Source of the DNA: Methanobacteriota archaeon
GTDB lineage: Archaea; Thermoplasmatota; Poseidoniia; Poseidoniales; Thalassarchaeaceae
Assembly (NCBI GenBank): GCA_018654845.1
Contig: JABIKU010000011.1
Location: 29,596-93,595, forward strand
Length of the DNA: 64,000 nt
Reading direction: 5' to 3'
Positions 14,150 to 63,384 of this stretch are shown in pieces. The translations under genes and the position numbers were made by a program. The notes under the pieces are model-generated. The model was not told the origin of the DNA and did no database searches. It worked only from the letters and a program-made list of their open reading frames with translations. How positions within the stretch are numbered: position 1 is the first letter of the stretch; every line of letters starts with the position of its first letter.

Positions 14150-14157
14150 AAAAAAAA
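14150..14157 (-). terminator. Possible oligo-T terminator for the SDR-folB unit
   Basis: T8 on the minus strand directly after the folB stop, facing the tRNA. Archaeal terminators are often T-runs. Confidence 0.3.
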
Positions 14158-14559: not shown

Positions 14560-14563
14560 GGTA

Positions 14564-15322: not shown

Positions 15323-15424
15323 AACTCGCCGAGATATCCTTGTGCTTTCACCTCTTGGATTCAAATCCTACCATATATTCTCTAAGGAGAATAGTTTTCA
15401 TCCAATGGCTGTCCCTTTGAATCA

Positions 15425-16474: not shown

Positions 16475-16508
16475 ACAGGCCAAACAATATGAGTGAGAAG
16501 CAGGTGTT

Positions 16509-18769: not shown

Positions 18770-18771
18770 GA

Positions 18772-20076: not shown

Positions 20077-20085
20077 GGAGATAAA

Positions 20086-45704: not shown

Positions 45705-46049
45705 ATGGCATTGAAGCAATCAGACTCAAGTAATCATATTCTTGATTCCGATTTTTTACATAATGTATCTAGCGTTATCAAAACTCTCGGACACCCAGAT
45801 CGAATCAGAATTGTAGAGAAGTTAAATGGCGAAGAATGTACTGTGTCCGAAATTCAAGAATCACTTGAAATTGGCCAATCAACCACCTCTCAACATCTTC
45901 GAAGAATGTACCGTGAAGGAATAGTAACGTCTCGTCGTGATGGAAATCGAGTGTTCTACTCTATCGCCAGTCCATTGATTGGAAAGATGCTAGCTTGCCT
46001 CGAAGAGGTCCAAGAAGAATTAATGAAAACTAAGGAGATGAAGATATGA
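45705..46049 (+). CDS. ArsR/SmtB-family transcriptional regulator
   Basis: KTLGHPDRIRI, TVSEI, QSTTSQHLRRM, GIVTSRRDGNRVFYSI; two Cys. Confidence 0.9.
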   Translation: MALKQSDSSNHILDSDFLHNVSSVIKTLGHPDRIRIVEKLNGEECTVSEIQESLEIGQSTTSQHLRRMYREGIVTSRRDGNRVFYSIASPLIGKMLACLEEVQEELMKTKEMKI

Positions 46050-46276
46050 CCGATTATAACGAAGAATTGGATTGCAGTGGACTGAATTGCCCACTACCTA
46101 TCCTCAAAACAAAAAAAGCGGTTGACAAATTAGAAAGTGGACAGATTCTCAAAATGGTATCCACAGATCCTGGATCATGTAATGATGTAGAAGCTTGGTC
46201 AAACCGAACAAAAAACCAATTATTAGAATCAGGAAAAGAAGGAGACAAGTATGTCTTCTATATTGAAAAGAAATGA
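46046..46276 (+). CDS. tusA: Sulfur carrier TusA
   Basis: LDCSGLNCPLPILKTKKA, STDPGS..DV. Confidence 0.93.
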   Translation: MTDYNEELDCSGLNCPLPILKTKKAVDKLESGQILKMVSTDPGSCNDVEAWSNRTKNQLLESGKEGDKYVFYIEKK

Positions 46277-46285
46277 GTTGAGAAA

Positions 46286-46801
46286 ATGAGTGAAAATGTA
46301 CCAAAGAAAATGGCGTTAATCGCCTCAAAAGGAACGCTAGATTGGGCCTACCCACCCTTTATCTTAGCATCGACCGCAGCCGCAATGGATATGGAAGTGA
46401 AAATTTTCTTCACTTTTTTTGGACTACCTCTGCTGAAGAAGAATCTGAAGACCGCTGTGTCTCCTCTTGGCAATCCCGCAATGCCGATGAAAATGCCATT
46501 TGGACCTAAGTTCTTCCAAAACATCAGTTGGCCTATACCTAATCTTGTAACAAGTAACGTTCCAGGCTTTGAATCAGTTGCTACTGGATTAATGAAGCAG
46601 ACCTTCAAGAAGAAGGGTGTTGCAACTATTGAAGAATTACGAGACATGTGCGTTGAGTTTGATGTCGAACTCATCGGCTGTCAGATGACCATGGATGTCT
46701 TCGGATTTGAAAAAGAAGATTTTATCGATGGAGTGAATATCGGTGGTGCGGCAACTTTCCTAGAATTTGCAGCTGATGCTGACATTACACTCTTTGTTTG
46801 A
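46286..46801 (+). CDS. dsrE2: DsrE2-type sulfurtransferase
   Basis: IASKGTLDWAYPPFILASTAAAM, FFTFFGL, IGCQMTMDVFG. Confidence 0.88.
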   Translation: MSENVPKKMALIASKGTLDWAYPPFILASTAAAMDMEVKIFFTFFGLPLLKKNLKTAVSPLGNPAMPMKMPFGPKFFQNISWPIPNLVTSNVPGFESVATGLMKQTFKKKGVATIEELRDMCVEFDVELIGCQMTMDVFGFEKEDFIDGVNIGGAATFLEFAADADITLFV

Positions 46802-46847
46802 ATTGTGATAATAATGGAACAAATATCAACTAAAGGAGAGAAGAAAA

Positions 46848-47231
46848 ATGAATGATGATGATGATGATGGAAGTGTTGCAATTTATATGACGTCAGGACC
46901 CGCTACACCTCAGCGATGTGCTACACCATTCTATATGGCAAGCATTGCTGCAGCAATGGATAATGAAGTAAGTATCGTTTTCCAAATCGATGGAGTTATG
47001 CTGATGAAAAAAGGGGTAGCAGACGAATTATACGCCACAGAAGGTGGCAAACTTGTTATCGATTTCATTCGAGATGCAAAAGAGGCTGATGTAGAGATGT
47101 ATGTCTGTTCGGCAGCATTACAACTCCACAATTTAACTGAAGACGATTTAATCGAAGAATGTGATGGAGTTGTAGGAGCAGCTTGGATGACTGATGTAGG
47201 CTTAGATGCTAATATGGTCCTAATGTATTGA
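46848..47231 (+). CDS. DsrE3-type sulfurtransferase
   Basis: TSGPATPQRCATPFYMASIAAAMD, FQIDG, VCSAAL, GVVGAA. Confidence 0.78.
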   Translation: MNDDDDDGSVAIYMTSGPATPQRCATPFYMASIAAAMDNEVSIVFQIDGVMLMKKGVADELYATEGGKLVIDFIRDAKEADVEMYVCSAALQLHNLTEDDLIEECDGVVGAAWMTDVGLDANMVLMY

Positions 47232-47241
47232 GGTGGAAAAA

Positions 47242-47700
47242 ATGGAAGTTAATAATTGTAGTTTACCAGATGATTTACTCTACCATGTAGATTACAATGT
47301 TTGGTTAAGACTCAAGGAAGATGGAATTGTAGAGATGGGTATGACAGATATCGCTCAAACAATGGCTGGTTCAATTATTCATTGTAGACCAAAGAAAGCG
47401 GGGAAGAAAATTAAGGCAGGAAAAAGTGTCGCTACCGTCGAATCAGGTAAATGGGTTGGCCCAGTAAAATCACCATTAACAGGAATCATCCTCGAAAGAA
47501 ATGATGTGGCTGAAGGAGATGCTACAATAATTAATCGCTCACCTTACAATGAGGGTTGGATTGTTAGAATACAACCGAATAATTTCGAGGGCGAATGTGG
47601 TTCACTCGTTGAAGGTGATGCTGCCACAGCAGGTTATGCTGAATACATGTCGGAGAAAGATTTGGCTGAATGTATTCATTGTGAAGGGTTTGAAGCTTGA
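47242..47700 (+). CDS. lbpA: Lipoate-binding protein LbpA (GcvH-like)
   Basis: CSLPDDLLY, GMTDIAQ, lipoyl site TVESGKWVGP (Lys at 47449-47451), PYNEGWI; extra Cys; sits in the sHdr cluster with no gcvP/T nearby. Confidence 0.82.
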   Translation: MEVNNCSLPDDLLYHVDYNVWLRLKEDGIVEMGMTDIAQTMAGSIIHCRPKKAGKKIKAGKSVATVESGKWVGPVKSPLTGIILERNDVAEGDATIINRSPYNEGWIVRIQPNNFEGECGSLVEGDAATAGYAEYMSEKDLAECIHCEGFEA

Positions 47701-47715
47701 GACCACAAAGGGCGA

Positions 47716-48003
47716 ATGATGAGGATGATGATTTTGCAAGTATTCACACATCCTGCTTGCTCGAGTTGCGGACCGGTCGTCGAATCAGCATGGGAAATAA
47801 CTGAAAATAATGAACATATAAAAATTCAAACTGTGAGACTAGAGGATAAACAAGGCCTCGCCACAGCACAGTCATTAGGAATAAGGACAATTCCGTCGAT
47901 TATTGTCAAGATTGATGATGATGAAGTACATCGACTTGTTGGTACACCTAAACCAGGTGAATTAGAAAGCGTTGTAATGACTGTTACAGAAAATATGAGG
48001 TGA
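47716..48003 (+). CDS. Thioredoxin-fold protein (CSSC)
   Basis: FTHPACSSCGP, GIRTIPSIIV, LVG.P. Confidence 0.8.
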   Translation: MMRMMILQVFTHPACSSCGPVVESAWEITENNEHIKIQTVRLEDKQGLATAQSLGIRTIPSIIVKIDDDEVHRLVGTPKPGELESVVMTVTENMR

Positions 48004-48008
48004 AATAA

Positions 48009-48731
48009 TTGCAGTCAATTTACAAGGATGCAAAATATACTGAAGTCCCATATGAAGAAAAATTAAGCTTATTTAATGAAGTAAAGGGCGACATGAGATA
48101 CTCGACTGAATTGTATGGATGCTATGAATGTGGGATCTGCGTTGCCGCTTGTCCATCTGCACGATTCTATGATTTCAGTCCGAGAGTTTTTGCCCAAACA
48201 ATGGCTAGAGAAGATGTTAATTCATTTTATGAATTACTGAATGATAATGTCTGGGATTGTTCACAATGTTTCTCCTGTACTTGTTGCCCAAGACAGAATA
48301 ACCCTGGTGGAATCATTACGATAATGAGGGAAGTCGCTGTAAACAATGGTTTGCAATCTGCAAAAGATGCTCTACGGGCGTACTCGAGAATAATCTACAA
48401 AGTTATGACTACGGGGACACAAGTCTCCCCTGATATGCTTCAACCAGATTTCTTTCCCGATTGGGGACCAGATGTTCGTGATGTTTCGCTCAACCTTGAT
48501 GTTTGGCGACGTGCAATTCCACCCGAAACATTACACACGGTAGAATTAGCTTGGGATGTTAGTGAAAAAACTCAGCTTGAACTTTACATGATTTGGAAAT
48601 TGACTGGCAATCTTGAAATGATTGAAAATGTTGATGAAGGCCTGTACATGATTCTTGAAGAAGTCATGGAAGAATTACTAGACGAACATGGCTATGATAT
48701 TGATGACTTTGAAAATATATTAGAAGATTAA
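48009..48731 (+). CDS. shdrC1: sHdrC1, 2x[4Fe-4S] subunit of the sulfur-oxidizing Hdr-like complex
   Basis: CYECGICVAACP and CSQCFSCTCCP; PDWGP; TTG start. Confidence 0.82.
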   Translation: MQSIYKDAKYTEVPYEEKLSLFNEVKGDMRYSTELYGCYECGICVAACPSARFYDFSPRVFAQTMAREDVNSFYELLNDNVWDCSQCFSCTCCPRQNNPGGIITIMREVAVNNGLQSAKDALRAYSRIIYKVMTTGTQVSPDMLQPDFFPDWGPDVRDVSLNLDVWRRAIPPETLHTVELAWDVSEKTQLELYMIWKLTGNLEMIENVDEGLYMILEEVMEELLDEHGYDIDDFENILED

Positions 48732-48747: not shown

Positions 48748-49962
48748 ATGCAGAGCAAAAATCCAATTCAACTAAATGTTGTCAATCAAAATTTGAAAGT
48801 CAAGAAGGCAGTAGATAGAGAATTTCAGTTACCAAAAAATCCTCCTACCAAAGATTACCGGAAAGAATTATTCGCGCTAGAAGCTGCGGGTGAAATCGAA
48901 ATCATCAGGGTTCCCGAGCCATTTGTTGAAGTCGATACAAAATATGGTAGAAAAAAGAAAATTCCAATTGAACACACTTGGCATCACAAATCATGTGGTC
49001 AATGTGGCCATATCCCAGGATACTCTACATCGATATATTGGCTCAATCGAGAATTTGGATTAGATTATTACGACCCACGAGATCAAACATCATGCACAGC
49101 ATGGAATTATTATGCATCTGCTGCATCAAATCCAGCAGCTCAGGCTGCAATTGCGTGTAGAAATTTCGCACAAGCTAAAATTGATGGCTATTTTCCTCTC
49201 ATCCATTGTGGGACAAGTTATGGGCACTACAAAGAGGTCAGGGCTCAATTATTACACTTCCCAGAATTACGCGAACAGGTTCGAAAAATTCTCGATAGGC
49301 TAGGGCTTCCGTTTGTTTTTCCTGAGGAAATAGTCCATTACTCTGAATGGGTACACGTAATGCGTCATCGAATTGCAGAAAAACAAACCCGAGACTTCTC
49401 CAAAGTTACCGCTACCGTTCACCCCGCTTGCCATTACCATAAATTAATTTCAGAAGATGCAATTTATGACCGAGACCTATACGATGGTCAACGAACAGCG
49501 ATAGTTACAGGAGTAGTCGAAGCATTGGGAGCGAAGGTCGCAGATTATTCAACATTCCACGATTGTTGTGGATTCGGATTTAGGCACATCCTTGTCAGTC
49601 GTGATTTCTCACGATCATTCGCAACAATTCGTAAAATTGAAAGAATGAAAATAGAAGCTGATCCAGATGTGACGATAACGCATGACACTGGTTGTGTCAC
49701 CACGCTCGACAAAAGTCAATTTTCAACTCAAGCCCATAATCGAAAGGTAGGCATTCCTGTAATTTCGGATGCTCAGTTCGCAGCTCTTGCGATGGGTGCT
49801 CATCCATACCTAGTTTGCCAATTACATTGGCATGGAGTGGACAATGTACCATTGCTCGAACTAATGGGCATTGACCATGAAAAAGCATGGAAAGAATTTG
49901 AAGAGGTCGCAGATAAATTACAACAAGACCCGGAAGCATTCCTTACTTGGGAGGATGTTTGA
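48748..49962 (+). CDS. shdrB1: sHdrB1, CCG-domain subunit
   Basis: WHHKSCGQCGHIPGY, QTSCTAWNYY, HCGTSYG, HPACHYHK, DCCGFGFRHI, HDTGCVTTLD. Confidence 0.88.
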   Translation: MQSKNPIQLNVVNQNLKVKKAVDREFQLPKNPPTKDYRKELFALEAAGEIEIIRVPEPFVEVDTKYGRKKKIPIEHTWHHKSCGQCGHIPGYSTSIYWLNREFGLDYYDPRDQTSCTAWNYYASAASNPAAQAAIACRNFAQAKIDGYFPLIHCGTSYGHYKEVRAQLLHFPELREQVRKILDRLGLPFVFPEEIVHYSEWVHVMRHRIAEKQTRDFSKVTATVHPACHYHKLISEDAIYDRDLYDGQRTAIVTGVVEALGAKVADYSTFHDCCGFGFRHILVSRDFSRSFATIRKIERMKIEADPDVTITHDTGCVTTLDKSQFSTQAHNRKVGIPVISDAQFAALAMGAHPYLVCQLHWHGVDNVPLLELMGIDHEKAWKEFEEVADKLQQDPEAFLTWEDV

Positions 49963-51024
49963 ATGAATGGAAAAAATATAATGGTAATTGGCGGAGGTCC
50001 CGCAGGTTTAGAATCAGCAGCAGGTATTTTGGATTTAGGTTATAACCTAATTTTAGTCGAAAAACGTGAATCACTAGGAGGAACTCCAATTTCAGCATCA
50101 TATGCTGCATTGACTCCAGATATGGAAGACACCGAAGTAGCAATGGCTAGAATGGTTAATTCAGTCGTTGGTAAAGAAAATGCCGACATCAGGCTTGGAA
50201 CATCGGTAGTAAGCGTTGAAGGCTCTGCCCCAGACTTCTTGGTAACTCTAGAATCGCCATCTGGTGTCGAAATCGTTAATGTAGGCTCAGTAATTGTAGC
50301 AACCGGATTCAAACACTTTGACCCTGGTCGAGAAACACAAAAATATGGATATTATGAATATGATGATGTCATAACTTTGGTTGATGCTGAAAAAATGCTG
50401 AAATCTGGAGAATTTGTTCGACCATCAACTGGAGAAAAACCAAAGAGAATTTGTTTCATCCAATGTGTTGGTAGTCGAGATAGGCAAATCGGCAATCAAT
50501 GGTGCTCAAAGGTTTGTTGCGGAATTGCAACAAAAGAAGCGATTGAAATCAAACATTTGGTTCCAGATTGCACTGTGATTGTTTTCTATATCGATATGCG
50601 TATGTATGGATTTTGGGAAGACGAATTATACTGGAAAGCCCAAGAAGAATACAAAGTTAATTACATCCGAGGAATTGTTAGTGAAGTTACAAAAAGAGGC
50701 GACACAGTCGTTGTCAAAGGTGAAGATACTACGATGGGAAGACCAATGGAAGTAGAAATGGACATGGTTATCCTATCGGTTGGAATGGAGCCATCCGATG
50801 GAACAATAGCTATGGCAGAGGCTTTCAATTTACCATTAGAATGTCATGGTTGGATTGAGACTATTGGAGGTGCATTGAATACTGTTCAAACTCCTGTTAA
50901 CGGTGTTTTCGTAGCGGGTGCTGCTGCCGGTCCTGCGGATCTTGAAGATTCAATCTCAATGGGCGGAGCTGCTGCGATGAAAGCCTGTGCATTCGTAAGA
51001 CGAATATCATTACCAACCGTTTGA
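49963..51024 (+). CDS. shdrA: sHdrA, short flavoprotein subunit
   Basis: IGGGPAG, IQCVGSRDRQIG..WCSKVCC, FYIDMR; 353 aa, lacking the ferredoxin and MvhD-binding regions of methanogen HdrA. Confidence 0.9.
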   Translation: MNGKNIMVIGGGPAGLESAAGILDLGYNLILVEKRESLGGTPISASYAALTPDMEDTEVAMARMVNSVVGKENADIRLGTSVVSVEGSAPDFLVTLESPSGVEIVNVGSVIVATGFKHFDPGRETQKYGYYEYDDVITLVDAEKMLKSGEFVRPSTGEKPKRICFIQCVGSRDRQIGNQWCSKVCCGIATKEAIEIKHLVPDCTVIVFYIDMRMYGFWEDELYWKAQEEYKVNYIRGIVSEVTKRGDTVVVKGEDTTMGRPMEVEMDMVILSVGMEPSDGTIAMAEAFNLPLECHGWIETIGGALNTVQTPVNGVFVAGAAAGPADLEDSISMGGAAAMKACAFVRRISLPTV

Positions 51025-51037
51025 AGGAGTGATACCA

Positions 51038-51814
51038 ATGTTGTACGATTCATTAACGATTCAAGAAGTGGTTGATTCTGAATCTGCAGCTGAGTTTTTG
51101 AAAGAAGCTACTAAATTAGCAAGCTCAAAAGAATTGGAAGATATTGCTAAAAAATTGTCAACAAAACAACAGTATTTCAAAAAAACTCTTGGGCAAAATA
51201 ATCTAAACACAATCGATGAAAGAGAACTAGAACACCTACTTAGACGTGTGTTTTCTATCAGTCGAAAATCTCCAAAAATTATCCGCATGATCGGTTTTGA
51301 GAATCTGTGTAATTCGATTAATGAATTGTTGTACGGAGAGTATGGAGAATTAGAATCGGGAAAAAGAATTACTATCTTTACAAAATCAGTTTCAAATGTA
51401 TTAGATGAGCGTCGTGCTATTAATCTAGCGAGTGAATTGCTACATTATTCTGATCCAGAGAAGTATGCACTTTGGACGAATTGGATTTGGGATCCAATAA
51501 CCGGCTCCGGGGCTCTTCAAATGGTTCTCCAAGAAGAAATGTGGATTCAAGGAGATACGATATCAGATAGATATGATAGCATTTCTTCTGCATTAAAAAT
51601 AATTGAACACGCGGGTTATTCAAAATCAATTTCAGGAAACGCATCAGGAATGTTGGGGTGTAGCCTATACCTAGCTTGCGTACATGCGGTTTACATGTAC
51701 ACGGTTTTCCGTATGAAAATGTCAAATGAATTCAATCGGATTCTACCCGAACTTCCAGAAATGGTAGAACGTTTACTGGGAGTTCGAAAAATGGAGGTTG
51801 ACCAATATGTCTGA
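51038..51814 (+). CDS. shdrH: sHdrH-like conserved protein
   Basis: Position after shdrA; ASELLHY..PEKYALWTNWIWDP; YMYTVFRMKMSNEFNRILP; GGAGTGA RBS before ATG 51038. Confidence 0.7.
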   Translation: MLYDSLTIQEVVDSESAAEFLKEATKLASSKELEDIAKKLSTKQQYFKKTLGQNNLNTIDERELEHLLRRVFSISRKSPKIIRMIGFENLCNSINELLYGEYGELESGKRITIFTKSVSNVLDERRAINLASELLHYSDPEKYALWTNWIWDPITGSGALQMVLQEEMWIQGDTISDRYDSISSALKIIEHAGYSKSISGNASGMLGCSLYLACVHAVYMYTVFRMKMSNEFNRILPELPEMVERLLGVRKMEVDQYV

Positions 51815-53081
51815 GCACAAGTACCAGAATTACGTAGAAAAAGAAGTGGCAATTATCGATGGAATCGATGTATCTGGAGCTTGGAACAGGATGTGGGAGC
51901 CTCGAGAAACAACAAATTTTGATTTTCAATTTTTAGACAAGGTTGTCGAGTTACCTGGCGGTGTGTCCATGGGGGCATGCTATCAATGCGCACAATGCAT
52001 TGGTGTTTGTCCAGTAGATAATGTGGGCTCATACGGACCACGAAAACTATACCAAAAACTCCAAAATGGTCACGATTTATTTAATTCTCCTGATTTATGG
52101 CTCTGCACAACTTGTAGCAATTGTTTGAGAGTATGTCCAAAAGAAGTTGACATGATGCAAATTATGCCAGCGATTCGAGAGGTAGCAATCCTAGATGGTA
52201 ATGTCCCGGCTGAACTTCAAGAAATGCTGCAAAATGTAGCTGAATATGGAAACCCAATGGGTGAATCGGCTCGAAAGCGAACAAAATGGGCTAAGAAATT
52301 TGAAGAGCCTCTTCGCGATTTATCAAAAGAACCCGGAGAAGTGGATGTACTTTGGTATGTAAGCGATTATTTCAGTTATCATCCACGTGGGAATGATGCT
52401 GCAAAAGCGATGACGAGAGTATTCAACCAACTTGGTATGGATTTCGGGATACTTGGTCGAAAAGAGAGAAGTGATGGGGATTCACAACGACTTTGTGGAG
52501 AAGTTGGTCTGTTTGAAGAATTAGCAGAATATAACCACGCATTATTCGAATCTAACCCACATAACAAACTCGTTGTCAGCGATCCACACGCTTACAATGC
52601 TTTCAAAAATGAATATCCAAAATTGACAGGAGTCGAATACCCAGTCGAACATTATACTCAATATCTGGCTGGAAGAATTGATGAACTCAAATCCATGTTT
52701 ACAAATGAATTTACCAAAAAAGTCACTTTTCATGATCCTTGTTATCTCGGCCGTCATAATAACGAATACGAGGCACCGAGAACTCTTATCGAGGCAATTC
52801 CGGGGATCGATTTCGTCGAAATGTACCGCTGTAAGCAGCAGGGCTACTGTTGTGGAGGCGGTGGCGGTGGCATGTGGTTAGATGGTTTGATGGCCGACCA
52901 TACCTCTGAACGCCTATCTGAGAATAGAGTGAAAGAAGCAGTAGAAGTTGGAGCAGAAGTTCTGGTAGTTTGCTGTCCTTACGAAGTTTCACGGTTTGAA
53001 GATGCTGTGAAATCTACCGGTAATGAAGGAGTGTTAGAAGTTCTCGATATTATCGAAATTATCGACAAATGTATCGCATAA
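51807..53081 (+). CDS. HdrC/HdrB-like fusion (sHdrB3-like): 2x[4Fe-4S] + CCG domains
   Basis: CYQCAQCIGVCP, CTTCSNCLRVCP, HDPCYLGR, CCGGGGG, CCPYE; GGAGG RBS, ATG 51807. Confidence 0.8.
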   Translation: MSEHKYQNYVEKEVAIIDGIDVSGAWNRMWEPRETTNFDFQFLDKVVELPGGVSMGACYQCAQCIGVCPVDNVGSYGPRKLYQKLQNGHDLFNSPDLWLCTTCSNCLRVCPKEVDMMQIMPAIREVAILDGNVPAELQEMLQNVAEYGNPMGESARKRTKWAKKFEEPLRDLSKEPGEVDVLWYVSDYFSYHPRGNDAAKAMTRVFNQLGMDFGILGRKERSDGDSQRLCGEVGLFEELAEYNHALFESNPHNKLVVSDPHAYNAFKNEYPKLTGVEYPVEHYTQYLAGRIDELKSMFTNEFTKKVTFHDPCYLGRHNNEYEAPRTLIEAIPGIDFVEMYRCKQQGYCCGGGGGGMWLDGLMADHTSERLSENRVKEAVEVGAEVLVVCCPYEVSRFEDAVKSTGNEGVLEVLDIIEIIDKCIA

Positions 53082-53097
53082 AGGAGAAGGGAATAAC

Positions 53098-53835
53098 ATG
53101 AAAATAGCAGTATTACTCAAATGGGTACCAGATTTAGTAGAAGAACTTGAAGTCGATGATGATGGTATCGGAATAGACACCGATGACCTGAAATTCAAAC
53201 TGAATGAATTCGATGACCACGCTCTCGAAGAAGCCTTACAAATCGCAAATGATGGAGATGAAGTCGTCGCTATTGCAATTGATGGAGATGGAACGGAGAA
53301 GATGCTTTACACCGCGATTGCAAAAGGAGCGAGTTCAGGAATTCGACTTACAGGTGGCTCGAACTCAAACACTGCAAACTTAGCTGCTGGTTTCGCTACA
53401 GCATTAGATGGTGGAAATTACGACTTGATTCTTACAGGGGTCCAATCAGTCGATGATTTAGATGGGCAATTAGGCCCAATTCTTGCAGCAAATATGGGAC
53501 TTCCTTGTGTATCTGTAGTTAGTTCGTTGAATGTTTCCGGCGGTGTAGCTACAGTCACTAAAGAATATTCAGGTGGAATCGTCGCTGAATTTGAAGTAGA
53601 TCTCCCCGCTGTTCTCGGGATTCAGGCTGCTCGTGAAACTCCACGTTATGCTCCGGTCAGTAAAATACGTCAGGTGCAACAATCAACTGATTTGGCTGAG
53701 AAATCAGTCTCAGGATCATCAACCTCTGGAACAATTATCACAGCAATGTCAGAACCAGAGACTGGCGGTGGGGCGAAAATGCTGGATGATGTTGAAGATT
53801 TAATTGAAATTCTCAAAGGACTGGGGGTTTCTTGA
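53098..53835 (+). CDS. etfB: Electron transfer flavoprotein beta subunit
   Basis: KWVPD, NEFDDHALEEAL, GVQSVD, NETPRY-like RETPRY. Confidence 0.9.
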   Translation: MKIAVLLKWVPDLVEELEVDDDGIGIDTDDLKFKLNEFDDHALEEALQIANDGDEVVAIAIDGDGTEKMLYTAIAKGASSGIRLTGGSNSNTANLAAGFATALDGGNYDLILTGVQSVDDLDGQLGPILAANMGLPCVSVVSSLNVSGGVATVTKEYSGGIVAEFEVDLPAVLGIQAARETPRYAPVSKIRQVQQSTDLAEKSVSGSSTSGTIITAMSEPETGGGAKMLDDVEDLIEILKGLGVS

Positions 53836-54765
53836 ATGGCTGGAATTATGGTTATTTGTGAGCATCTCGCAGGAGAATTTAGCGATATCACATTCGAAAT
53901 GCTCGATGTTGCAAACAAAATTGGAGGCGACATTACTGCTGTTACTTTTGGGTCGATGAAGGAGAAATCCGGAGAATTAGGTATTGCTAACAACGTAATT
54001 GATGCCGGAGGAGATACTGAGTATAACCCGGAATCGTATGCATCTGGAGCGAAAGCGGCTGTTGAATCAAATTCACCTAGCATTATTCTTGTCGCTTCAA
54101 CATCGATGGGATATGACATAGGTAACCCTCTCGCTGTAAATTTAGGAATTCCATTGGCATCATATTGCACAGGAGTTTCTTCTGACGGCACGAATCATGA
54201 GTTTACTAGTTCACTATACGGCGGCAAAATGAGTGTTACTTCAACCGCCGCCGGACCAGCGATTGCTCTCATGCTCGCCGGAGCAGGTGATGCTGATGCT
54301 GGTAGAGTGAGTGGTTCTCCTTCTTTGAGTCAGGTAAGTGGAGAAAGTTTAGACAGAGTTCGATTTAAGCAACTAATAGAGCCTGATGCTGGGGATGTTG
54401 ATATTACTCAATCAGAGATAATTATTGCGATAGGACGAGGAATTGGTGGAAAAGATGACATCGAAATCGCCGAAGAACTCGCCGAAGTGATAGATGCAGA
54501 CATTGCATGCTCACGACCTTTAGTTGATGCTGGCTGGTTACCTAAATCTCGACAAGTTGGGAAATCTGGAATGAAAGTTAAACCGAAATTATACATTGCT
54601 CTAGGAATTTCTGGCGCTCCGGAACATATCGAAGGCATGAAAGATTCAACGACGATTATCGCAATCAATAGCGATGAAAATGCTCCAATTTTCGATGTGG
54701 CTCATTACGGAATGGCAGAAGATCTTTTCGACGTTGTTGAAGAATTAATTGATGAATTAGAGTGA
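53836..54765 (+). CDS. etfA: Electron transfer flavoprotein alpha subunit
   Basis: GRGIG, SRPLVDAGW, QVGKSG, YIALGISGAPEH, AINSDENAPIF. Confidence 0.93.
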   Translation: MAGIMVICEHLAGEFSDITFEMLDVANKIGGDITAVTFGSMKEKSGELGIANNVIDAGGDTEYNPESYASGAKAAVESNSPSIILVASTSMGYDIGNPLAVNLGIPLASYCTGVSSDGTNHEFTSSLYGGKMSVTSTAAGPAIALMLAGAGDADAGRVSGSPSLSQVSGESLDRVRFKQLIEPDAGDVDITQSEIIIAIGRGIGGKDDIEIAEELAEVIDADIACSRPLVDAGWLPKSRQVGKSGMKVKPKLYIALGISGAPEHIEGMKDSTTIIAINSDENAPIFDVAHYGMAEDLFDVVEELIDELE

Positions 54766-54784
54766 TGATTTTTTATCGTATCTA

Positions 54785-56842
54785 GTGGTGAGAATAATGT
54801 TTAGCGAACAAGAAAGAATGGTATTTATTGGATTGGTTGTGATTTGTGGAGCACTAGCTTGGCCTGGATTTTACAATATGTTCAAAATCATTCGAAAGGG
54901 AGGGGAAGTCAATCGTTTTGATAATATTATCAAACGCTTCCTCACTGCTACTATCGATGTACTATTACAAAAACCGATTTTCAAAACTAGACCTTTTGTA
55001 AGTATTTTGCACGCATTCATTTTCTTTGGGTTTTCATTTTATTTACTTGTAAATGTTAGTGATTTACTCGAGGCATTTGTCGAAGGATGGACAACTATCG
55101 ACCGTGGTCCAATATTTGGAACTTTCAATTTACTTGCTGACCTATTCAGTGTATTAGTTTTGGTCGGTATGATTTCGATGCTCTATAGAAGATTTGTAGT
55201 GAAGCCAAAAGCATTCGAGTTCAATGACAATGTATTACTCCATCCGAAAGTTGCGAAAGGTTCAATCAAAAAAGATTCTCTTTTCGTTGGAATATTCATA
55301 CTCTTGCACGTCGGCTCAAGATGGGTTGGAACTGCAATTAGAATGGCAGAGGAGGGGCATACGAATGCTTGGCTACCAACCGCTAGCCTACTCGTCCCAT
55401 TATTCTCAGATATGAGCCCTGAATCGCTTGAACAGGCTTTCCACATTACTTGGTGGATAGCGATGGGTTTGATTGTGATGTTCATCCCATATTTCCCGCG
55501 CTCAAAACACATTCACTTGATGATCGCTCCCATAAATCTAGCACTCGGCAGAAATACGCCAGTAGGTGCTCTAGACCCTGTCATAGACTATTCATCTCCC
55601 GGAGCGAGTGGAATCCTCGAACTCCCCTGGCCTCAATTGCTCGATCCTTACGCTTGCATAATGTGCACTCGCTGTCATGAAGTGTGTCCCGCACATGAGA
55701 GTGGAACCTCACTGAGTCCATCCGCGCTCGAAATCAATAAACGATATTTGATGAATGAAAGTGGAAGTTCACTCGCTGCAGGCGAAGATATTCAATTACT
55801 AGATTCAGCGATTAGTAGCGATGCGGTCTGGTCTTGTACAACCTGCAATGCCTGTGTTTCAATTTGCCCGGTAGGCAATGAGCCGATGCAAGATATCATT
55901 CAGATGCGACGGAGCATGGTGTTCGACTCAAATATGCCCGACGAACTAGCTGATACTCTTCGTTCCCTTGATGAACAAGGAAACTCATTTGGTGAATCAA
56001 ACCGAAAACGTAGTCGTTGGACAAAACCACTTAATATCGATATCAAAGATGCGAGTAAAGAAGCAGTAGACATCCTTTGGTTTGTTGGTGATTTCGCATC
56101 ATTCAATCAATCTTGTACCGATACCACCCGCAAGGTTGCAGAAGTATTAACTGCGGCTGGTGTTGATTTTGGTATCATTAAGAAAGGTGAGAAAAGTGCT
56201 GGAAATGATGTCCGTAGAGTCGGTGAAGAAGGGTTATTTGAATCGTTGGCAGAACAAAATATCGAGAAATTAGCTGGCTGTGAATTCAACAGAATTATGA
56301 CTACAGATCCGCATACATTCAATGCATTGAAGAATGAATATCCAGCATTGGGTGGAGAATATGAAGTAGTTCATTACTCTACTCTTTTACTCGAAATGAT
56401 GGAGTCAGGAATTATTAATCTCGATGAAACACTTTCTGGTAATGCAACATATCACGATCCGTGTTATCTCGGCCGTTATAATGGAATTTATGAGGCTCCT
56501 CGAGGAGTAATAGAGAGATGTGGATTATCGATTGTGGAAATGCCCCGTAATCGAGATAATTCATTATGTTGTGGCGCAGGTGGCGGACAAATTTGGATGA
56601 ATGATCACGATGATATGACCCAGCGCCCTTCTGAAATGCGTATCGAAGAGGCACTATCCGTTGGTGTTTCTCGTTTCCTAGTCGCTTGTCCTAAAGATAT
56701 GACTATGTATTCTGATGCAGTCAAGACAAGCGGCCACGAAGGCGAAATAATCGTCGAGGACATTATTGACCTAGTTTACTCGGCTATGAATATGCAAGTT
56801 GAGAAAATGCTGCCATCCAACGTGGATGGGGTTCTAACTTGA
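54785..56842 (+). CDS. Membrane-bound Fe-S oxidoreductase (FadF/Emo-like; TM + 2x[4Fe-4S] + 2 CCG), probable ETF:quinone link
   Basis: N-terminal TMs with His (LHAFIFFGF, FHIT, KHIH); CIMCTRCHEVCP, CTTCNACVSICP; HDPCYLGRYN, CCGAGGG, ACPKD. Start GTG 54785 or ATG 54797. Confidence 0.8.
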   Translation: MVRIMFSEQERMVFIGLVVICGALAWPGFYNMFKIIRKGGEVNRFDNIIKRFLTATIDVLLQKPIFKTRPFVSILHAFIFFGFSFYLLVNVSDLLEAFVEGWTTIDRGPIFGTFNLLADLFSVLVLVGMISMLYRRFVVKPKAFEFNDNVLLHPKVAKGSIKKDSLFVGIFILLHVGSRWVGTAIRMAEEGHTNAWLPTASLLVPLFSDMSPESLEQAFHITWWIAMGLIVMFIPYFPRSKHIHLMIAPINLALGRNTPVGALDPVIDYSSPGASGILELPWPQLLDPYACIMCTRCHEVCPAHESGTSLSPSALEINKRYLMNESGSSLAAGEDIQLLDSAISSDAVWSCTTCNACVSICPVGNEPMQDIIQMRRSMVFDSNMPDELADTLRSLDEQGNSFGESNRKRSRWTKPLNIDIKDASKEAVDILWFVGDFASFNQSCTDTTRKVAEVLTAAGVDFGIIKKGEKSAGNDVRRVGEEGLFESLAEQNIEKLAGCEFNRIMTTDPHTFNALKNEYPALGGEYEVVHYSTLLLEMMESGIINLDETLSGNATYHDPCYLGRYNGIYEAPRGVIERCGLSIVEMPRNRDNSLCCGAGGGQIWMNDHDDMTQRPSEMRIEEALSVGVSRFLVACPKDMTMYSDAVKTSGHEGEIIVEDIIDLVYSAMNMQVEKMLPSNVDGVLT

Positions 56843-56864: not shown

Positions 56865-58292
56865 ATGGTCAATTACGGTTTCGTCATCGACAATCGCAAG
56901 TGTATTGGATGCCATGCATGTACTGTCGCATGTAAGTCTGAACACGATGTCCCTATCGGAGTAAACCGCACTCACGTAAAGTACATCGAAACTGGAACTT
57001 ATCCAGATGTCACTCGTGAATTTAGTGTCCATCGCTGTAATCATTGCGAAGATTCACCATGTACTACAATTTGTCCAACTAGTGCACTATTCACAAGAGA
57101 TGATGGCATCGTTGACTTCGATGATGACCGTTGTATCGGATGCAAATCTTGTATGCAAGCCTGTCCTTACGATGCTCTCTATATCGACCCTAACAAAGGC
57201 ACGGCGGCTAAGTGCAATTATTGTGCTCATCGCATCGAACATTCATACGAGCCAGCTTGTGTCATTGTCTGTCCGACCGAAGCGATTGTTTCTGGAGATC
57301 TTGATGATGAAAATTCTTCAATCTCAGGATATCTGCGTGATCATGTAACAACGGTTCGTAAACCTGAATCGGGTGCAAATCCCAATGTATACTATGTTGA
57401 GACAAGTGAAGAAATGTTAGACCCTAAAGCAACTGAACGCTCCGGCGAATACCTGTGGACCGACCAGGCAGCAGGAGTTGGCCATTATGCAAAATATGCA
57501 GATCAACGTCTCGGTGCAGCAGATACAAATTCAATGATTGTACAATTAGCTCTCGAGAAAAAGGCACGAGCTGCGGCTGGAAGAGACCGAGCAATCATTC
57601 GAGATGTCATGGAGCGCTTGGACGAGCAAGCAGGGAAGCCGAAACGCTCCTATGACCAACCAGCGAAAGGCATCCTTTGGGACTGGGACGTTGCAGGATA
57701 TCTCGTCACCAAATCTACAGCTGCTGGTTTGTACATTCTGATGATGCTCGCGATGATTACTGGGAAAATCAATTTCGGCAGCGAAATCCTCATCGCGTTG
57801 GTAGCTAGCATAGGATTACTAGGATTAACCGGATTACTCCTCATTAATGATTTAGACAAACCAATGCGGTTCGTCTATGTTCTCTTGCGACCTAATTTTT
57901 CTTCCTGGCTCGTAAAGGGAGGATACACACTCGGTGCATTCGCCAACATCATGGTCGTGCATTTAGGGATATTTTTCCTCGATATGCCTGAAATTTGGCA
58001 TATGTGGTTAGCAATTCTTGGAATCCCTCTAGCTTGGTTGACTGGAAATTACACTGGTTGGTTATTCAAGCAAGCAAAGGGACGTGAAAAATGGGCGAAC
58101 CGTACCAATCAAGAAATCATTATCACAGGTTCAATCGAAATGTTGGTTTTCGGTGGAGCTGCCGCGCTTCTATTGCTCTTCTCAGGAATTCTGCAATATC
58201 TTGCTCTATCCGGAGCCGTACTAATTTTCACCTTCGGATACAAGCACGTGCTACACGATTTGCGTAGTGCTCAAGTGGAGACACTACATTGA
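56865..58292 (+). CDS. Fusion of DmsB/PsrB-type 4x[4Fe-4S] subunit and NrfD/PsrC-type membrane anchor
   Basis: CIGCHACTVAC, CNHCEDSPCTTICP, CIGCKSCMQACP, KCNYC...PACVIVCP; then WDWDVAGYL, DLDKPMRF, SSWLVKG. Confidence 0.87.
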   Translation: MVNYGFVIDNRKCIGCHACTVACKSEHDVPIGVNRTHVKYIETGTYPDVTREFSVHRCNHCEDSPCTTICPTSALFTRDDGIVDFDDDRCIGCKSCMQACPYDALYIDPNKGTAAKCNYCAHRIEHSYEPACVIVCPTEAIVSGDLDDENSSISGYLRDHVTTVRKPESGANPNVYYVETSEEMLDPKATERSGEYLWTDQAAGVGHYAKYADQRLGAADTNSMIVQLALEKKARAAAGRDRAIIRDVMERLDEQAGKPKRSYDQPAKGILWDWDVAGYLVTKSTAAGLYILMMLAMITGKINFGSEILIALVASIGLLGLTGLLLINDLDKPMRFVYVLLRPNFSSWLVKGGYTLGAFANIMVVHLGIFFLDMPEIWHMWLAILGIPLAWLTGNYTGWLFKQAKGREKWANRTNQEIIITGSIEMLVFGGAAALLLLFSGILQYLALSGAVLIFTFGYKHVLHDLRSAQVETLH

Positions 58293-58302
58293 GGTGAATG
58301 AT

Positions 58303-61032
58303 ATGGCAAAAACAATTATCGAAGGTATCGCACAAAAATTGCGAATCATACCAAACCTCGACCGAAATGTCACTGAAGGAAATTTAGAACCTCTCCGAAA
58401 ATTCCCCTCATCTAATGAATGGCACAATCATATCGAATTAGATGCAAATTCTTGGCCGGTACGAATTGAGAGGAAATATTCCTTAGTGCCAACAACTTGT
58501 TTCAATTGCGAATCCGCATGTGGCCTGCTCGCATATGTAGACAAAGGAACCAGGCAAGTATCCAAATTCGAAGGAAACCCACACCACCCTGGTAGTCGCG
58601 GGAGAAATTGCGCTAAAGGACCGGCTACAATTAATCAAATTCAGGATACTGAGCGTATTTTGTACCCAATGCGAAGAGTCGGAGGGCGTGGTGAAGGTGG
58701 TTGGGAGAGAATATCTTGGGATGAGGCGTTGGATGAAATTTCAACAAAAATCCGCGCATCACTAAAGACTGGCGCAGTCGACAAAGTCGTTTATCACGTA
58801 GGTAGACCAGGGCATGAAGGATACATGAATCGCGTCCTCAAAGCCTGGGGTGTAGATGGCCATAATTCACACACAAATATCTGTTCAGCTGGGGCGCGAA
58901 CTGGATATGCGCTTTGGCATAAACACGATAGACCAAGTCCCGATCATACAAATGCAAAGGTCATACTTCTAACATCTTCTCACCTTGAAACCGGCCATTA
59001 TTTCAATCCTCATGCTCAACGAATTCTAGAAGGAATGATGGATGGAGCAAAACTCATCGTCATCGACCCTAGACTCTCGAATACGGCGGCGATGGCAGAT
59101 TATTGGCTACCAACCTGGCCGGGAAGTGAGCCAGCATTATTCCTCGCGTGGGCAAAAATGATTATTGAGCGCGGCCTATTTGACCGCGAATTCATGGAAA
59201 CTCAGGTTAATTGGGATGCTTGGATGAAAGCTGTCCACCCCGATGAGCCTTGCAATTTCGATCGATATATCGAATTACTAACTGAAGAATACGCTGAATA
59301 TACACCGGAATTTGCTGCAGAAGAATGCAAGATCCCGGTCGAACAAGTTATCGAAGCTGGAGAGGTGGTTGCAAGTGCAGGAACACAATTGTGTACCCAC
59401 GTTTGGCGCAGTGCTTCTATCGGAAACTTAGGGGGATGGCAAGTAAGCCGTACACTTCATTTCCTCAATGTCCTGACAGGATCGGTAGGAACAGAAGGGG
59501 GAACCTCACCTAATTCATGGTCTAAATTCAAACCAGATCTCTTCGATAATCCACCTGACCCAGATGGCTGGAACGAACTCCATTTCCCACCTGAATACAC
59601 TATGTCTCACTTCGAAATGAGTCACATTCTACCTCATCTAATCAAGGATGGAAGAGGCTCAATGGATGTTTACTTCACACGTGTATTCAATCCGGTTTGG
59701 ACATTTCCTGATGGATTTTCATGGATGGAAATGTTGCAGAATAAGGAATCGGTTGGCTGCCATGTCGCAATGACTCCAACCTGGAATGAAACTGCATTCT
59801 TTGCTGATTATGTTCTACCTATGGGGCATTCAGCCGAGCGACATGACGTCAATTCTTACGCGACGTCCTCGGGTAAGTGGGTAGCATTCCGCCAACCTGT
59901 TCTGCGTGAATATGCACGCAGAGAGGGACGGGAAGTCGAATTTACTCACGAAGTAAATCCAGGGGAAGTTTGGGAAGAAGATGAATTCTGGAACGAGTTA
60001 TCGTGGCGAATCGATGATGGCACGATGGGGATACGTGAGCACTTCATGAGCCCATACCGTGAAGGAGAAAAAATCACTATCGATGAATATTATCAGTATC
60101 TTTTCGAGCGTGTCCCGGGTCTTCCTGAAGCCGCAGAAAAAGAAGGTACTGACGCCCTAGGATACATGAGGAAACATGGAGCATTCCTCATTGAAGAATC
60201 GACATACAAAAAGTATGAGGAAGAAGGATGGCCTACCCCTTCAGGTAAGCAAGAATTCTATTCAGAAACAATGATTGAATTCGGCTATCCTGAACACTCA
60301 ATACCTCATTACCGACAAAAATCTCATGTTCACCCAGAAAATCTTGTAGGCGAAAACGAATATTGTCTACTGCCTAACTTCCGACTTCCACAACATATCC
60401 ACTCCCGCTCAGCCAATGCAAAATGGTTAGTCGAAATCGCTCATAGAAATCCAATTTGGATTCATCCGAAAGATGCAAGAAAACTGGGCGTTGCCGAAGG
60501 GGATTTACTAAAAATCGAAACTGAAATCGGTTGGTTCGTCGACAAGGTATGGGTCACTGAAGGTATCAAACCTGGCGTAGTTGGTTGCAGCCACCACATA
60601 GGCCGGTGGCGGCGAAATCAAGATGCTGGTAATCGCTTCCTAACAAATACTGTCAACATCGAAGATAACGGTGACGGCAAGATGCGAATGAGGACTGTCA
60701 GCGGCATCGAACCGTGGAAGTCGGATGACCCCGATACCAACAGAATTTGGTGGAGGGACGGCGGGGTTCACCAGAACATAACTCACGCCGTACAACCAGA
60801 TCCAATCTCTGGAGCCCATTGCTGGCTCCAGAAGGTCAAATTATCCCTCCCGGGAGAAGGCGAAGAATACGGAGACATCGAGGTAGATCAACAAAAGTCG
60901 TTTGATTATTATAAACGGTGGAATAACTGGGCAAAGGATAGAGAAACTCATCCGAGAGGTGAGCGACGTCCACTATGGATGAAAAGACCATTACCGCCAA
61001 AGAAAGAACACTGGTATATCAAAGAGGAATAA
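58303..61032 (+). CDS. DMSO-reductase-family molybdopterin oxidoreductase catalytic subunit, no Tat signal (Soe/Sre/Psr-like)
   Basis: TCFNCESACG...GRNCAKG (FS0), ISWDEAL, HTNICSA, IDPRLS, C-terminal HSRSANAKWL..IWIHPKDA; GAGGTGA RBS, ATG 58303. Confidence 0.88.
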   Translation: MAKTIIEGIAQKLRIIPNLDRNVTEGNLEPLRKFPSSNEWHNHIELDANSWPVRIERKYSLVPTTCFNCESACGLLAYVDKGTRQVSKFEGNPHHPGSRGRNCAKGPATINQIQDTERILYPMRRVGGRGEGGWERISWDEALDEISTKIRASLKTGAVDKVVYHVGRPGHEGYMNRVLKAWGVDGHNSHTNICSAGARTGYALWHKHDRPSPDHTNAKVILLTSSHLETGHYFNPHAQRILEGMMDGAKLIVIDPRLSNTAAMADYWLPTWPGSEPALFLAWAKMIIERGLFDREFMETQVNWDAWMKAVHPDEPCNFDRYIELLTEEYAEYTPEFAAEECKIPVEQVIEAGEVVASAGTQLCTHVWRSASIGNLGGWQVSRTLHFLNVLTGSVGTEGGTSPNSWSKFKPDLFDNPPDPDGWNELHFPPEYTMSHFEMSHILPHLIKDGRGSMDVYFTRVFNPVWTFPDGFSWMEMLQNKESVGCHVAMTPTWNETAFFADYVLPMGHSAERHDVNSYATSSGKWVAFRQPVLREYARREGREVEFTHEVNPGEVWEEDEFWNELSWRIDDGTMGIREHFMSPYREGEKITIDEYYQYLFERVPGLPEAAEKEGTDALGYMRKHGAFLIEESTYKKYEEEGWPTPSGKQEFYSETMIEFGYPEHSIPHYRQKSHVHPENLVGENEYCLLPNFRLPQHIHSRSANAKWLVEIAHRNPIWIHPKDARKLGVAEGDLLKIETEIGWFVDKVWVTEGIKPGVVGCSHHIGRWRRNQDAGNRFLTNTVNIEDNGDGKMRMRTVSGIEPWKSDDPDTNRIWWRDGGVHQNITHAVQPDPISGAHCWLQKVKLSLPGEGEEYGDIEVDQQKSFDYYKRWNNWAKDRETHPRGERRPLWMKRPLPPKKEHWYIKEE

Positions 61033-61035
61033 ATT

Positions 61036-61863
61036 ATGGAATTTGAATTGATAATCGCGATCGTTTTGATCTTGATGACTGCATTTATGTTTGCACCGCT
61101 CGGACTAGGTGGTGGAGTTCTCTATGTGCCAATATTCCTATTCTTACTCGATTGGGAAATCCACCTTGCACTCGTCTCGTCCCTCCTACTCGTTTGGATG
61201 GTTTCACTGGGAAGTAAAGCAGCCCATAGCAAAGGAGGTTATGCAGTAAAGGAAGTGGGTGACAAAGGAACCGTCGCAGCACTGATTGGAGTGGTTGTTG
61301 GGACGATATTAGCTGCTTTCATTATCGGTGAATTGGGCGATGTTCCAATTAAAATTCTCGCATCGATTCTTCTAGTATGGGTATTATACTCAACAATTAA
61401 AAAATTGACTAAAGAATTGAACGGCAACGGCAATGGTGATACAGAAACTCCAGTCGTTGAAGGAGAAATTTTGAACGCCTATCGGGCGGGTTGCTTTGGA
61501 GGAGGCGCAGCTTCAGGATTTTTAGGAATCGGTGGTGGTGCAATTTTCGTTACAATTCACAGCTCAATTCTTGGATTAAAGCAACACCAAGCAGCTGGAA
61601 CTTCATTCCTCATCGAGAGTTGGATAGTACCTACAGGAATCATAACTCACCTCATAATCGATGGTACAGGACCGGAAATTTTGCAGATATTTGGGATCTA
61701 CATCTTACCTATTTGCGGAATAGTTGCAGCAACATCTTGGCTCGGTGCTCAAGTTGCAATCAAAATGCTTCCACAAAGAGTGTTGACCTATCCATTCATC
61801 ATAGCAGTAGCTGCGAGTTTGATTAATTATCTGATGAATATCAAAGAGATGCTAGGTTACTAA
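61036..61863 (+). CDS. TauE/SafE-family sulfite/sulfur-compound exporter
   Basis: Two repeated halves: GLGGGVLYVP and GFLGIGGGAIFV...AAGTS; about 8 TM. Confidence 0.8.
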   Translation: MEFELIIAIVLILMTAFMFAPLGLGGGVLYVPIFLFLLDWEIHLALVSSLLLVWMVSLGSKAAHSKGGYAVKEVGDKGTVAALIGVVVGTILAAFIIGELGDVPIKILASILLVWVLYSTIKKLTKELNGNGNGDTETPVVEGEILNAYRAGCFGGGAASGFLGIGGGAIFVTIHSSILGLKQHQAAGTSFLIESWIVPTGIITHLIIDGTGPEILQIFGIYILPICGIVAATSWLGAQVAIKMLPQRVLTYPFIIAVAASLINYLMNIKEMLGY

Positions 61864-62148: not shown

Positions 62149-63384
62149 TTAAAATGCTTCAATAATCATAGCAATTCCCTGCCCGCCACCAATGCAGGCA
62201 GTTGCGATACCATAGCGTCCTCCGCTGCGTTTTAGCTCGAGAGCAAGGGTAAGAACAAGGCGGCTACCGGTAGCAGCTAATGGGTGTCCAAGACCTACCG
62301 CTCCGCCGTTAACATTGACAATCCCTGAAGAAATTCCTAATTCTTTCATACACGCGACCGCTTGTCCGGCGAATGCCTCATTGATTTCCCAACGATCGAT
62401 TTCTTCAACAGACATTCCTGCATTTTCAAGAGCCTTTAGGCTGCTTGGAACAGGTCCATATGCCATAATAGAGGGGTCGAGGCCAACTATACCCCAGGAA
62501 ATGATGCGAGCTAATGGCTCATCTCCATCCGCTTCTGCTCTGCTAGCTGATTTGATGACAACCGCAGCTGCCCCATCCACAACCCCAGATGCGTTTCCGG
62601 CTGTAACAAGCGAATCAGGGCCGAAATGAGTTCTTAATCCACCCAATGATTCTTCTGTTGTTCCGCGAACAAAGTGATCTTCTTCAGTTGCAGTAACAAG
62701 TCCATCTGCTGTTTCGACATTGACAATTTCTTCTGCCCATACGCCATTATCAACGCTCTTCTCTGTTCGAGAGTGGGACAAGACTGCGAAAGCGTCGGTC
62801 TCTTCTCTAGAAACTCCCACCTGAGCACAAAGTTTGTCACTGGTTTGAGCCATAAAGGAGTTACAGGTTTCATCTAGAAGATTTGTGAATAGGTAATCTT
62901 CCATATTTTTTGATAATACATCCCCTTCCCGTGGAGGGCGACCAAGTTTGTATGTATCTCGCATTCCACGTAATACATGAGGTGCTTGACTGAGATTTTC
63001 CATGCCTCCCGAAACGACGACTTCGGCTTCACCGAGCATAATCATTTGAGCACCAGATATGATTGACTGAACGCCACTTCCACATAGCCGATTAAGCGTC
63101 AACATCGGAACTTTTTGTGGAATTCCTGCATTCAAACCCGCATGACGAGCACCAAAAATCGCTTGATTGCTCGTCTGTAGTGCATGACCCATTACGACAT
63201 GATCGACAGATTCGGGAGAGGTTCCCGTTTTTTCTAATGCGCCCTTTATTGCAATAGTACCTAGTTGTTCAGCACTGACAGAAGCTAATCTACCACCGAC
63301 TTCGCCATCTCCGCGTTTGCCTCCAAGCCACTCACAAAATGGAGTTCTTGCACCACCGATTATGACTACGTCTTCGTTGCTCAT
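62149..63384 (-). CDS. Thiolase (acetyl-CoA C-acyltransferase)
   Basis: TLNRLCGSG, GGMENLS, VTAGNASGVVDGAA, NEAFA, GHPLAATG, ACIGGGQG. Confidence 0.95.
   Translation of the reverse strand: MSNEDVVIIGGARTPFCEWLGGKRGDGEVGGRLASVSAEQLGTIAIKGALEKTGTSPESVDHVVMGHALQTSNQAIFGARHAGLNAGIPQKVPMLTLNRLCGSGVQSIISGAQMIMLGEAEVVVSGGMENLSQAPHVLRGMRDTYKLGRPPREGDVLSKNMEDYLFTNLLDETCNSFMAQTSDKLCAQVGVSREETDAFAVLSHSRTEKSVDNGVWAEEIVNVETADGLVTATEEDHFVRGTTEESLGGLRTHFGPDSLVTAGNASGVVDGAAAVVIKSASRAEADGDEPLARIISWGIVGLDPSIMAYGPVPSSLKALENAGMSVEEIDRWEINEAFAGQAVACMKELGISSGIVNVNGGAVGLGHPLAATGSRLVLTLALELKRSGGRYGIATACIGGGQGIAMIIEAF

Follow-up and report, generated by a model that had tools for sequence, protein, structure and literature searches.

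By what route would electrons drawn from sulfur leave the cytoplasmic sHdr complex of a marine archaeon? The question is raised by a 64,000-nucleotide stretch of contig JABIKU010000011.1 (positions 29,596 to 93,595, forward strand; assembly GCA_018654845.1), here called the window, which belongs to the 86% complete genome of a Poseidoniales (marine group II) archaeon. Window positions 51807-56842 hold four intact open reading frames (ORFs) on the + strand: shdrB3 (51807..53081), encoding a soluble Fe-S protein of 424 amino acids (aa) with Fer4 and CCG domains; etfB (53098..53835) and etfA (53836..54765), encoding an electron transfer flavoprotein (ETF) whose FAD-binding domain in EtfA is intact; and emo (54785..56842), encoding an ETF:menaquinone oxidoreductase of the EtfD/FadF/EMO family, with a membrane part, two cubane motifs and a CCG region in 685 aa (681 aa from ATG 54797, the start that gene callers choose). 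The genes are spaced by 16 bp (B3/etfB), 0 bp (etfB/etfA) and 19 bp (etfA/emo), and shdrB3 starts 8 bp inside the preceding shdrH. The original prediction had recognized all four genes, together with histidines in the membrane region, and proposed that sulfur-derived electrons reach quinone via ETF and the FadF-like protein; that proposal agrees with all of the evidence below. We conclude that the four genes probably form the electron exit of a type II sHdr-LbpA system, dedicated to sHdr and leading from cytoplasmic sulfur oxidation to menaquinone, with fatty-acid oxidation served by a separate ETF and EtfD-like protein.

The idea itself is not new, and the four genes are the electron-exit half of an already published system. 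Type II sHdr-LbpA has the composition shdrC1B1AHB3-etfAB-emo, and its gene order and ETF-to-menaquinone route have been described, Thermoplasmatota included, by Tanabe et al. (2024, PMC11094781), who define type II by the presence of shdrC1, B1, A, H, B3 and etfAB in one syntenic cluster; the same ETF and membrane CCG genes make up "hdr cluster II" of Sulfobacillus (Justice et al. 2014, PMC4378227). In the window, shdrC1 (48009..48731, +; 43-49% identity to type I sHdrC1), shdrB1 (48748..49962, +; 47-52% to type I sHdrB1), shdrA (49963..51024, +; a short flavoprotein, 42% to type I sHdrA), the conserved hypothetical gene shdrH (51029..51814, +), shdrB3 and etfAB lie in one such cluster with emo after etfAB, so that gene set and order are identical to those of type II, and the proteins are 61-68% identical to the type II copies of Chloroherpeton thalassium. 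The type I reference sequences came from loci L107-L109; the sHdrB1 proteins of an Acidithiobacillus plasmid and of Thermithiobacillus were dropped as references, being orphans without sHdrC2/B2 or the other core components, and their genes (L101:7902-9242 and L106:6001-7365, respectively) lie among hemerythrin, globin and DUF2249 genes.

The companions of type II systems are present as well. Genes for an arsR-type regulator, tusA, dsrE2, dsrE, lbpA (GcvH-like) and a thioredoxin-like protein (45705..48003, +) form a sulfur relay before the core, and the genes from arsR to shdrH precede the four-gene part with intergenic gaps of -8 to 46 bp. Lipoate assembly genes, LbpA and sulfur transferases all occur in the genome, as expected of type II sHdr. 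The window differs in its set of transferases, having tusA, dsrE2 and a second dsrE, whereas DsrE3B is given as the sole transferase for Thermoplasmatota (PMC11094781), and in its host, since the system is rare among Poseidoniales. What is added here to the published module is modest: this rare marine group II host and a putatively chimeric origin of sHdrB3.

An identical B3 protein is encoded on 135 contigs and an identical EMO on 116, from independent assemblies with the same archaeal context; this recurrence across assemblies excludes a misassembly. At 37-44%, the GC content of the cluster lies at or just under that of the genome as a whole (mean 43.6%) and gives no sign of recent transfer. 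The stretch was found in six RNA libraries. Contigs of the four libraries examined, which stem from four marine studies, extend over most of 45.7-56.9 kb, and in run X16 one contig (49434-52721) and the next (52698-55206) bridge B1-A-H-B3 and B3-etfB-etfA-emo; this fits one transcription unit, without proving it. RNA cover is thin over traB and the Mo enzyme and was not used as evidence. Promoter and terminator scans were at chance (42 versus 41.8 and 12 versus 12.2), their model being that of bacterial sigma-70, which is unfit for an archaeon.

Which kind of ETF would receive the electrons? The motif DGDTAQVGP marks bifurcating ETFs and is stated to be absent from nonbifurcating ones; it is replaced by DDLDGQLGP in the window EtfB, and neither it nor RxFxG occurs in this protein or in any EtfB of the comparison set. 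The best solved-structure match for both subunits is the canonical Methylophilus ETF (PDB 1o94), which likewise lacks DGDTAQVGP, though identity to it is low; its partner is trimethylamine dehydrogenase. EtfA carries Ser in a segment where the other aligned ETFs bear Arg (RPxxGG), a position that may correspond to Arg205 at the bifurcating flavin (PMC9232219). By its EtfB motifs the window ETF is classed as canonical and nonbifurcating. In quick tree searches with SH-like approximate likelihood ratio test (SH-aLRT) support alone, which we used for both ETF and EMO, the ETFs of sHdr loci and of the Hdr/Mvh cassettes described below share a single branch (SH-aLRT 100), to which the housekeeping ETF of the host does not belong. 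The latter is only 30% identical to the cluster ETF, and its etfBA genes lie on contig C26, 3.5 kb from an acyl-CoA dehydrogenase gene.

The AlphaFold model of EMO (pLDDT 93) has five long N-terminal helices and matches mycobacterial EtfD (9ojn, PMC13083937; TM 0.86, E 8e-35). The likeness extends from the fold to the cofactor sites: His76 and His244, invariant in 59/59 homologues, align with the EtfD heme ligands His78 and His241; Arg136 and Arg296 correspond to the heme arginines Arg137 and Arg306, and Phe83 and Phe233 to the quinone-site residues Phe85 and Phe230; all eight Cys of the two cubane motifs are retained; and the second noncubane site, D2, keeps C560/595/596/635 and a histidine, His510. 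EMO differs from EtfD in that Asp638 replaces the last D2 Cys, as in every cassette EMO examined, in that all four Cys of the first CCG region (D1) are lost, as in FadF and DgcB, leaving no match to the linear [3Fe-4S] D1 motif of EtfD sensu stricto, and in that its gene is linked to hdr and not to beta-oxidation genes. The D1 and D2 Cys are intact in a second EtfD-like gene of the host, a housekeeping copy on contig C2 with matches in most relatives. In the EMO tree, the window protein falls inside the sHdr-linked EMOs, and a single branch (99) unites all EMOs of Hdr cassettes, with Bacillus FadF and the host housekeeping copy far away. A match of 44% in the congener G001 was rejected, as it turned out to be the housekeeping FadF. 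Phylogeny had been proposed as the check on the ETF and the membrane protein, and both group with sHdr-linked loci, not with fatty-acid loci. A histidine of TM5 found in 44/48 other homologues is absent from the window EMO; the EMO of Syntrophus is di-heme. Where this residue is lost, an 11-member subclade conserves His175 (11/11), His220 (10/11) and Met129 (11/11), and His175 and His220 may represent a remodelled second heme site.

The remaining subunit, sHdrB3, has been described as sHdrC2 fused to sHdrB2, with a single noncubane cluster (PMC11094781). At the motif level it indeed has only one noncubane site, in keeping with the type II definition: two cubane [4Fe-4S] motifs (C58/61/64/68 and C100/103/106/110) are followed by a first CCG region (CCG1) that has lost all four Cys and a second (CCG2) with C312/348/349/390 and His261, in which Glu393 replaces the last Cys. 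Loss of the CCG1 Cys and a carboxylate as the last CCG2 ligand are features that B3 has in common with EMO. The two CCG regions expected of these proteins are thus borne out by the fold but not by the motifs. The first 48 residues of B3 match three type I sHdrC2 proteins in an arm profile (E 1e-8 to 1e-13), as do those of all sHdr-linked B3 proteins; the profile found no match outside sHdr loci, B3-like proteins of non-sHdr cassettes included. This arm (residues 5-48; 51819..51950, +) is a candidate dock to the sHdr core. The CCG half has a different affinity: it shares 54% identity with an Mvh-cassette protein and 41% with the neighboring EMO, and sHdrB2 matches only at E 0.007-0.07. In the CCG tree B3 falls within the Mvh-cassette proteins (100/98), a group that is sister to the cassette EMOs (100/99), and a grouping of this half with sHdrB2 is rejected by the approximately unbiased (AU) test (delta lnL 166). 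For the ferredoxin domain, a tree with only three type I sequences allows grouping with sHdrC2 (p-AU 0.31) and weakly rejects grouping with the cassette proteins (p 0.034). The trees accordingly differ from the published description with regard to the B half; of the fused HdrC/B pair of the original prediction, position and the C half (the arm) hold, and the B half does not appear to derive from sHdrB2. As judged from these sequences, sHdrB3 is not a true C2+B2 fusion, and is best read as an sHdrC2-type arm joined to a CCG body whose sister group is the EMO of the same cassette.

What would such a protein do? The best structural match of the B3 model is EtfD, and B3 retains the equivalent of EtfD His583, a residue that completes the cluster and makes it noncatalytic in EtfD; D2 of EtfD has been argued to be noncatalytic and, in homologues without D1, to be the entry point of electrons from ETF (PMC13083937). 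On the strength of the CCG tree, the common degenerate motifs, the EtfD fold match and this argument about D2, we regard B3 as probably a soluble, EMO-like and noncatalytic adaptor between HdrA and ETF, one that reduces ETF. A complex prediction for B3, EtfA and EtfB scored 0.68 and its control with a swapped EtfA 0.57, from which no support is drawn either way.

The alternative that fares best is that B3 is after all a functional equivalent of sHdrC2 plus sHdrB2, carrying out disulfide chemistry (for example, on lipoylated LbpA) at its single noncubane cluster, with ETF fed by another subunit, such as sHdrA. Besides the published name, this idea has in its favor the identical gene position, the arm in common with sHdrC2 and the possible grouping of the ferredoxin domain; the weak match of the CCG half to sHdrB2 and the retained His583 equivalent make it unlikely. 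It would alter only how B3 docks and what it does to ETF, and otherwise overlaps with the preferred explanation.

How tightly are the ETF and EMO bound to sHdr? We fetched 80 loci with B3, 23 of which have the sHdr core (shdrB1/H). In these, etfB follows B3 in 23/23 and emo follows in 19, the other 4 ending at a contig edge. A second group of loci (L040-L058, L067, L070) has the same order of B3-like gene, etfB, etfA and emo without sHdr, followed in several of them by hdrA-mvhD-mvhG-mvhA or hdrC-hdrB-hdrA. No acyl-CoA dehydrogenase genes occur in the 23 sHdr loci or in the Hdr/Mvh-cassette loci, compared with 16 other loci that have them. The cassettes of the second group (Anaerolineae, Aminicenantia and Methanomassiliicoccales metagenome-assembled genomes [MAGs]; L040-L058, L070) resemble the window in the four-gene order, the degenerate CCG motifs and the joint branches of their ETFs (SH-aLRT 100) and EMOs (99). 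They differ in lacking the sHdr core and the sHdrC2-type arm on the soluble subunit, their partner being a canonical HdrA with a [NiFe]-hydrogenase.

A fuller account, to which we give slightly less than even odds, would make sHdrB3 a chimera of an sHdrC2-type docking arm and a soluble paralogue of the EMO cytoplasmic domain that acts as ETF reductase, so that type II sHdr would be wired to quinone by a portable Hdr-ETF-menaquinone cassette common with anaerobic HdrA-Mvh systems and expressed by a few marine group II archaea for energy from reduced sulfur. This origin would offer a concrete answer to which subunit passes electrons to ETF; it also implies that the second catalytic HdrB site found in type I should be missing from type II complexes.

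Within the cassette loci themselves, the B3-like/etfBA/emo genes precede hdrA-mvhD-mvhG-mvhA in anaerobic Chloroflexota and Methanomassiliicoccales MAGs (L070:7104-17261, L057:9986-19881, L040, L043 and L044), a candidate route from hydrogen to menaquinone through HdrA and ETF. Our literature search found no paper on this cassette beside hdrA-mvh; a similar arrangement is mentioned for Desulfobacterium autotrophicum (Justice 2014, PMC4378227). In an actinomycete locus (L036:1-4400 and 9380-20400), a type II sHdr cluster is accompanied upstream by another B3-like gene, which lacks the arm and lies next to an hdrA of canonical size.

In the mechanism that we propose, TusA and DsrE carriers would bring sulfane sulfur to the sHdr core, which together with LbpA would oxidize it to sulfite, as established for type I and assumed here. 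Docked on the core by its sHdrC2-type arm and ferredoxin domain, sHdrB3 would take up the electrons and pass them across two cubane clusters and one noncubane cluster, serving as a wire and not as a disulfide-reductase site. By analogy with its paralogue EMO, the CCG face of B3 would then reduce the canonical, nonbifurcating EtfAB. The structural homology to EtfD suggests that ETF next shuttles to EMO, where electrons would run from the noncubane cluster through two cubanes and heme b to menaquinone. The futalosine pathway would supply the quinone: two genes of the MqnA/D family are present, and menD was not found in the genome. Menaquinol would be reoxidized by a respiratory chain with terminal heme-copper oxidases, of which two subunit I genes are present, giving a heterotroph extra energy from reduced sulfur.

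Would the chain run in this direction? Oxidation appears more likely than reduction, because type II hosts include known sulfur oxidizers (PMC11094781), the ETF is nonbifurcating, and the genome encodes oxidases but revealed no [NiFe]-hydrogenase. Sulfur reduction, which had been left open as a possibility, is disfavored on the same grounds. Under low oxygen, electrons from menaquinol or acyl-CoA might run in reverse through ETF and B3 to sHdr, with sulfane sulfur or disulfides reduced as a sink; Syntrophus uses EMO in reverse, the same cassette stands beside HdrA-Mvh hydrogenase genes in anaerobes, and near relatives bear names (ETNP, SI) that point to low-oxygen waters. We consider this improbable. 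Transfer from ETF to a persulfide or lipoyl disulfide is uphill by ~0.2-0.3 V, the ETF lacks the marks of bifurcation, the TM5 His is missing, two terminal oxidases are encoded, and in the 86% complete genome the search for [NiFe]-hydrogenase returned only one weak partial match, probably NuoD.

That the ETF and EMO are a general link mainly serving acyl-CoA dehydrogenases for fatty or branched-chain acids, lying in a sulfur locus by chance, is the least probable reading of all: EtfD, the closest solved structure, serves beta-oxidation, the genome has five acyl-CoA dehydrogenases and a thiolase gene (62149-63384) lies 5 kb downstream of emo, but both proteins group with sHdr loci and split from the housekeeping ETF and EMO, 0/23 sHdr loci carry an acyl-CoA dehydrogenase, and the separate etfBA on C26 and EtfD-like gene on C2, with its intact D1/D2 Cys, are available for that task. 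Nor is there support for the suggestion that the module also takes electrons from acyl-CoA dehydrogenases, which had been based on a thiolase and a branched-chain 2-oxoacid dehydrogenase (BCKDH) in the window. The thiolase is there, and so is a 2-oxoacid dehydrogenase operon with E3 (16509-21522), a possible BCKDH.

Several points weigh against the assignment of the four genes as the dedicated sHdr exit. Some of the electrons might leave instead through LbpA and dihydrolipoamide dehydrogenase (E3, 20086-21522) to NAD+, a route that has been proposed for type I. Because a canonical ETF can serve more than one partner, there may be some cross-talk with acyl-CoA dehydrogenases. The RNA contigs carry no strand, show no single transcript and may include DNA. 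Finally, EMO can run in reverse, as in Syntrophus (PMC8805022), and the literature yielded neither biochemistry nor genetics on any type II system, the published route being a proposal (PMC11094781).

How widespread is the system among relatives? sHdrB1 was found in 3/401 sampled Poseidoniales genomes, the present one included, and the cluster EtfB in 1/201 genomes sampled. In the ETF and EMO trees the nearest sequences are those of two other archaeal MAGs and of Marinisomatota (SH-aLRT 98-100), and among bacteria the copies closest to them belong to Marinisomatota and Acidobacteriota. At the same site, which follows traB and has the Mo-enzyme genes, the congeners G009 and G017 have none of sHdr, ETF and EMO. 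The thiolase is retained there by G009 (97% identity) without ETF or EMO; these congener sites indicate that the presence of ETF and EMO tracks that of sHdr and not that of the thiolase. Genes for an FeS-NrfD fusion, a molybdopterin oxidoreductase and, by resemblance, a TauE-like protein (56865..61863, +) lie downstream of emo on the same strand, yet they are present also in congeners without the sHdr-ETF-EMO block. In place of the block, a 383-aa rhodanese/metallo-beta-lactamase (persulfide dioxygenase-like) gene is found in G017 (L102:4847-5998) and G009 (L103:8590-9741). The tusA and dsrE2 products of G009 share only 59% and 80% identity with those of the window, compared with 85-97% for most flanking genes.

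Marine group II archaea are regarded as plain heterotrophs, and those few lineages that possess a complete type II sHdr could be sulfur-oxidizing lithoheterotrophs. Our literature search found no paper on sulfur oxidation by type II sHdr in marine group II archaea; the survey of type II systems lists Thermoplasmatota among the carriers (PMC11094781).

Some further features were noted around the cluster and elsewhere in the genome. A divergent rhodanese gene (PF00581; 45255..45629, -) precedes the sulfur relay. In dsrE, an extra ATG codon (one more Asp) at window position 46851 is seen in 3/4 RNA runs and in other assemblies and represents a length polymorphism in an Asp run. The lipoate assembly genes lie on contig C15 (91-4935, -) and encode two radical SAM proteins, an Lpl(AB)-like ligase and an FAD oxidoreductase (lipS-like and lpl(AB)-like genes); in the relative G223 (L105:1323-6231), lipoate assembly genes stand between traB and arsR, directly preceding the sHdr cluster. 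Another Fe-S/CCG protein of the same genome, of 922 aa (C16:24390-28898), has its CCG part at the C terminus and an N terminus that by eye resembles cytochrome b subunit IV. Its gene comes after Rieske-like and cytochrome b-like genes, and a homologue of 920-970 aa occurs in most Poseidoniales sampled. Far from the cluster, the window also carries an ORF of 3006 aa on the - strand (1938-10958).

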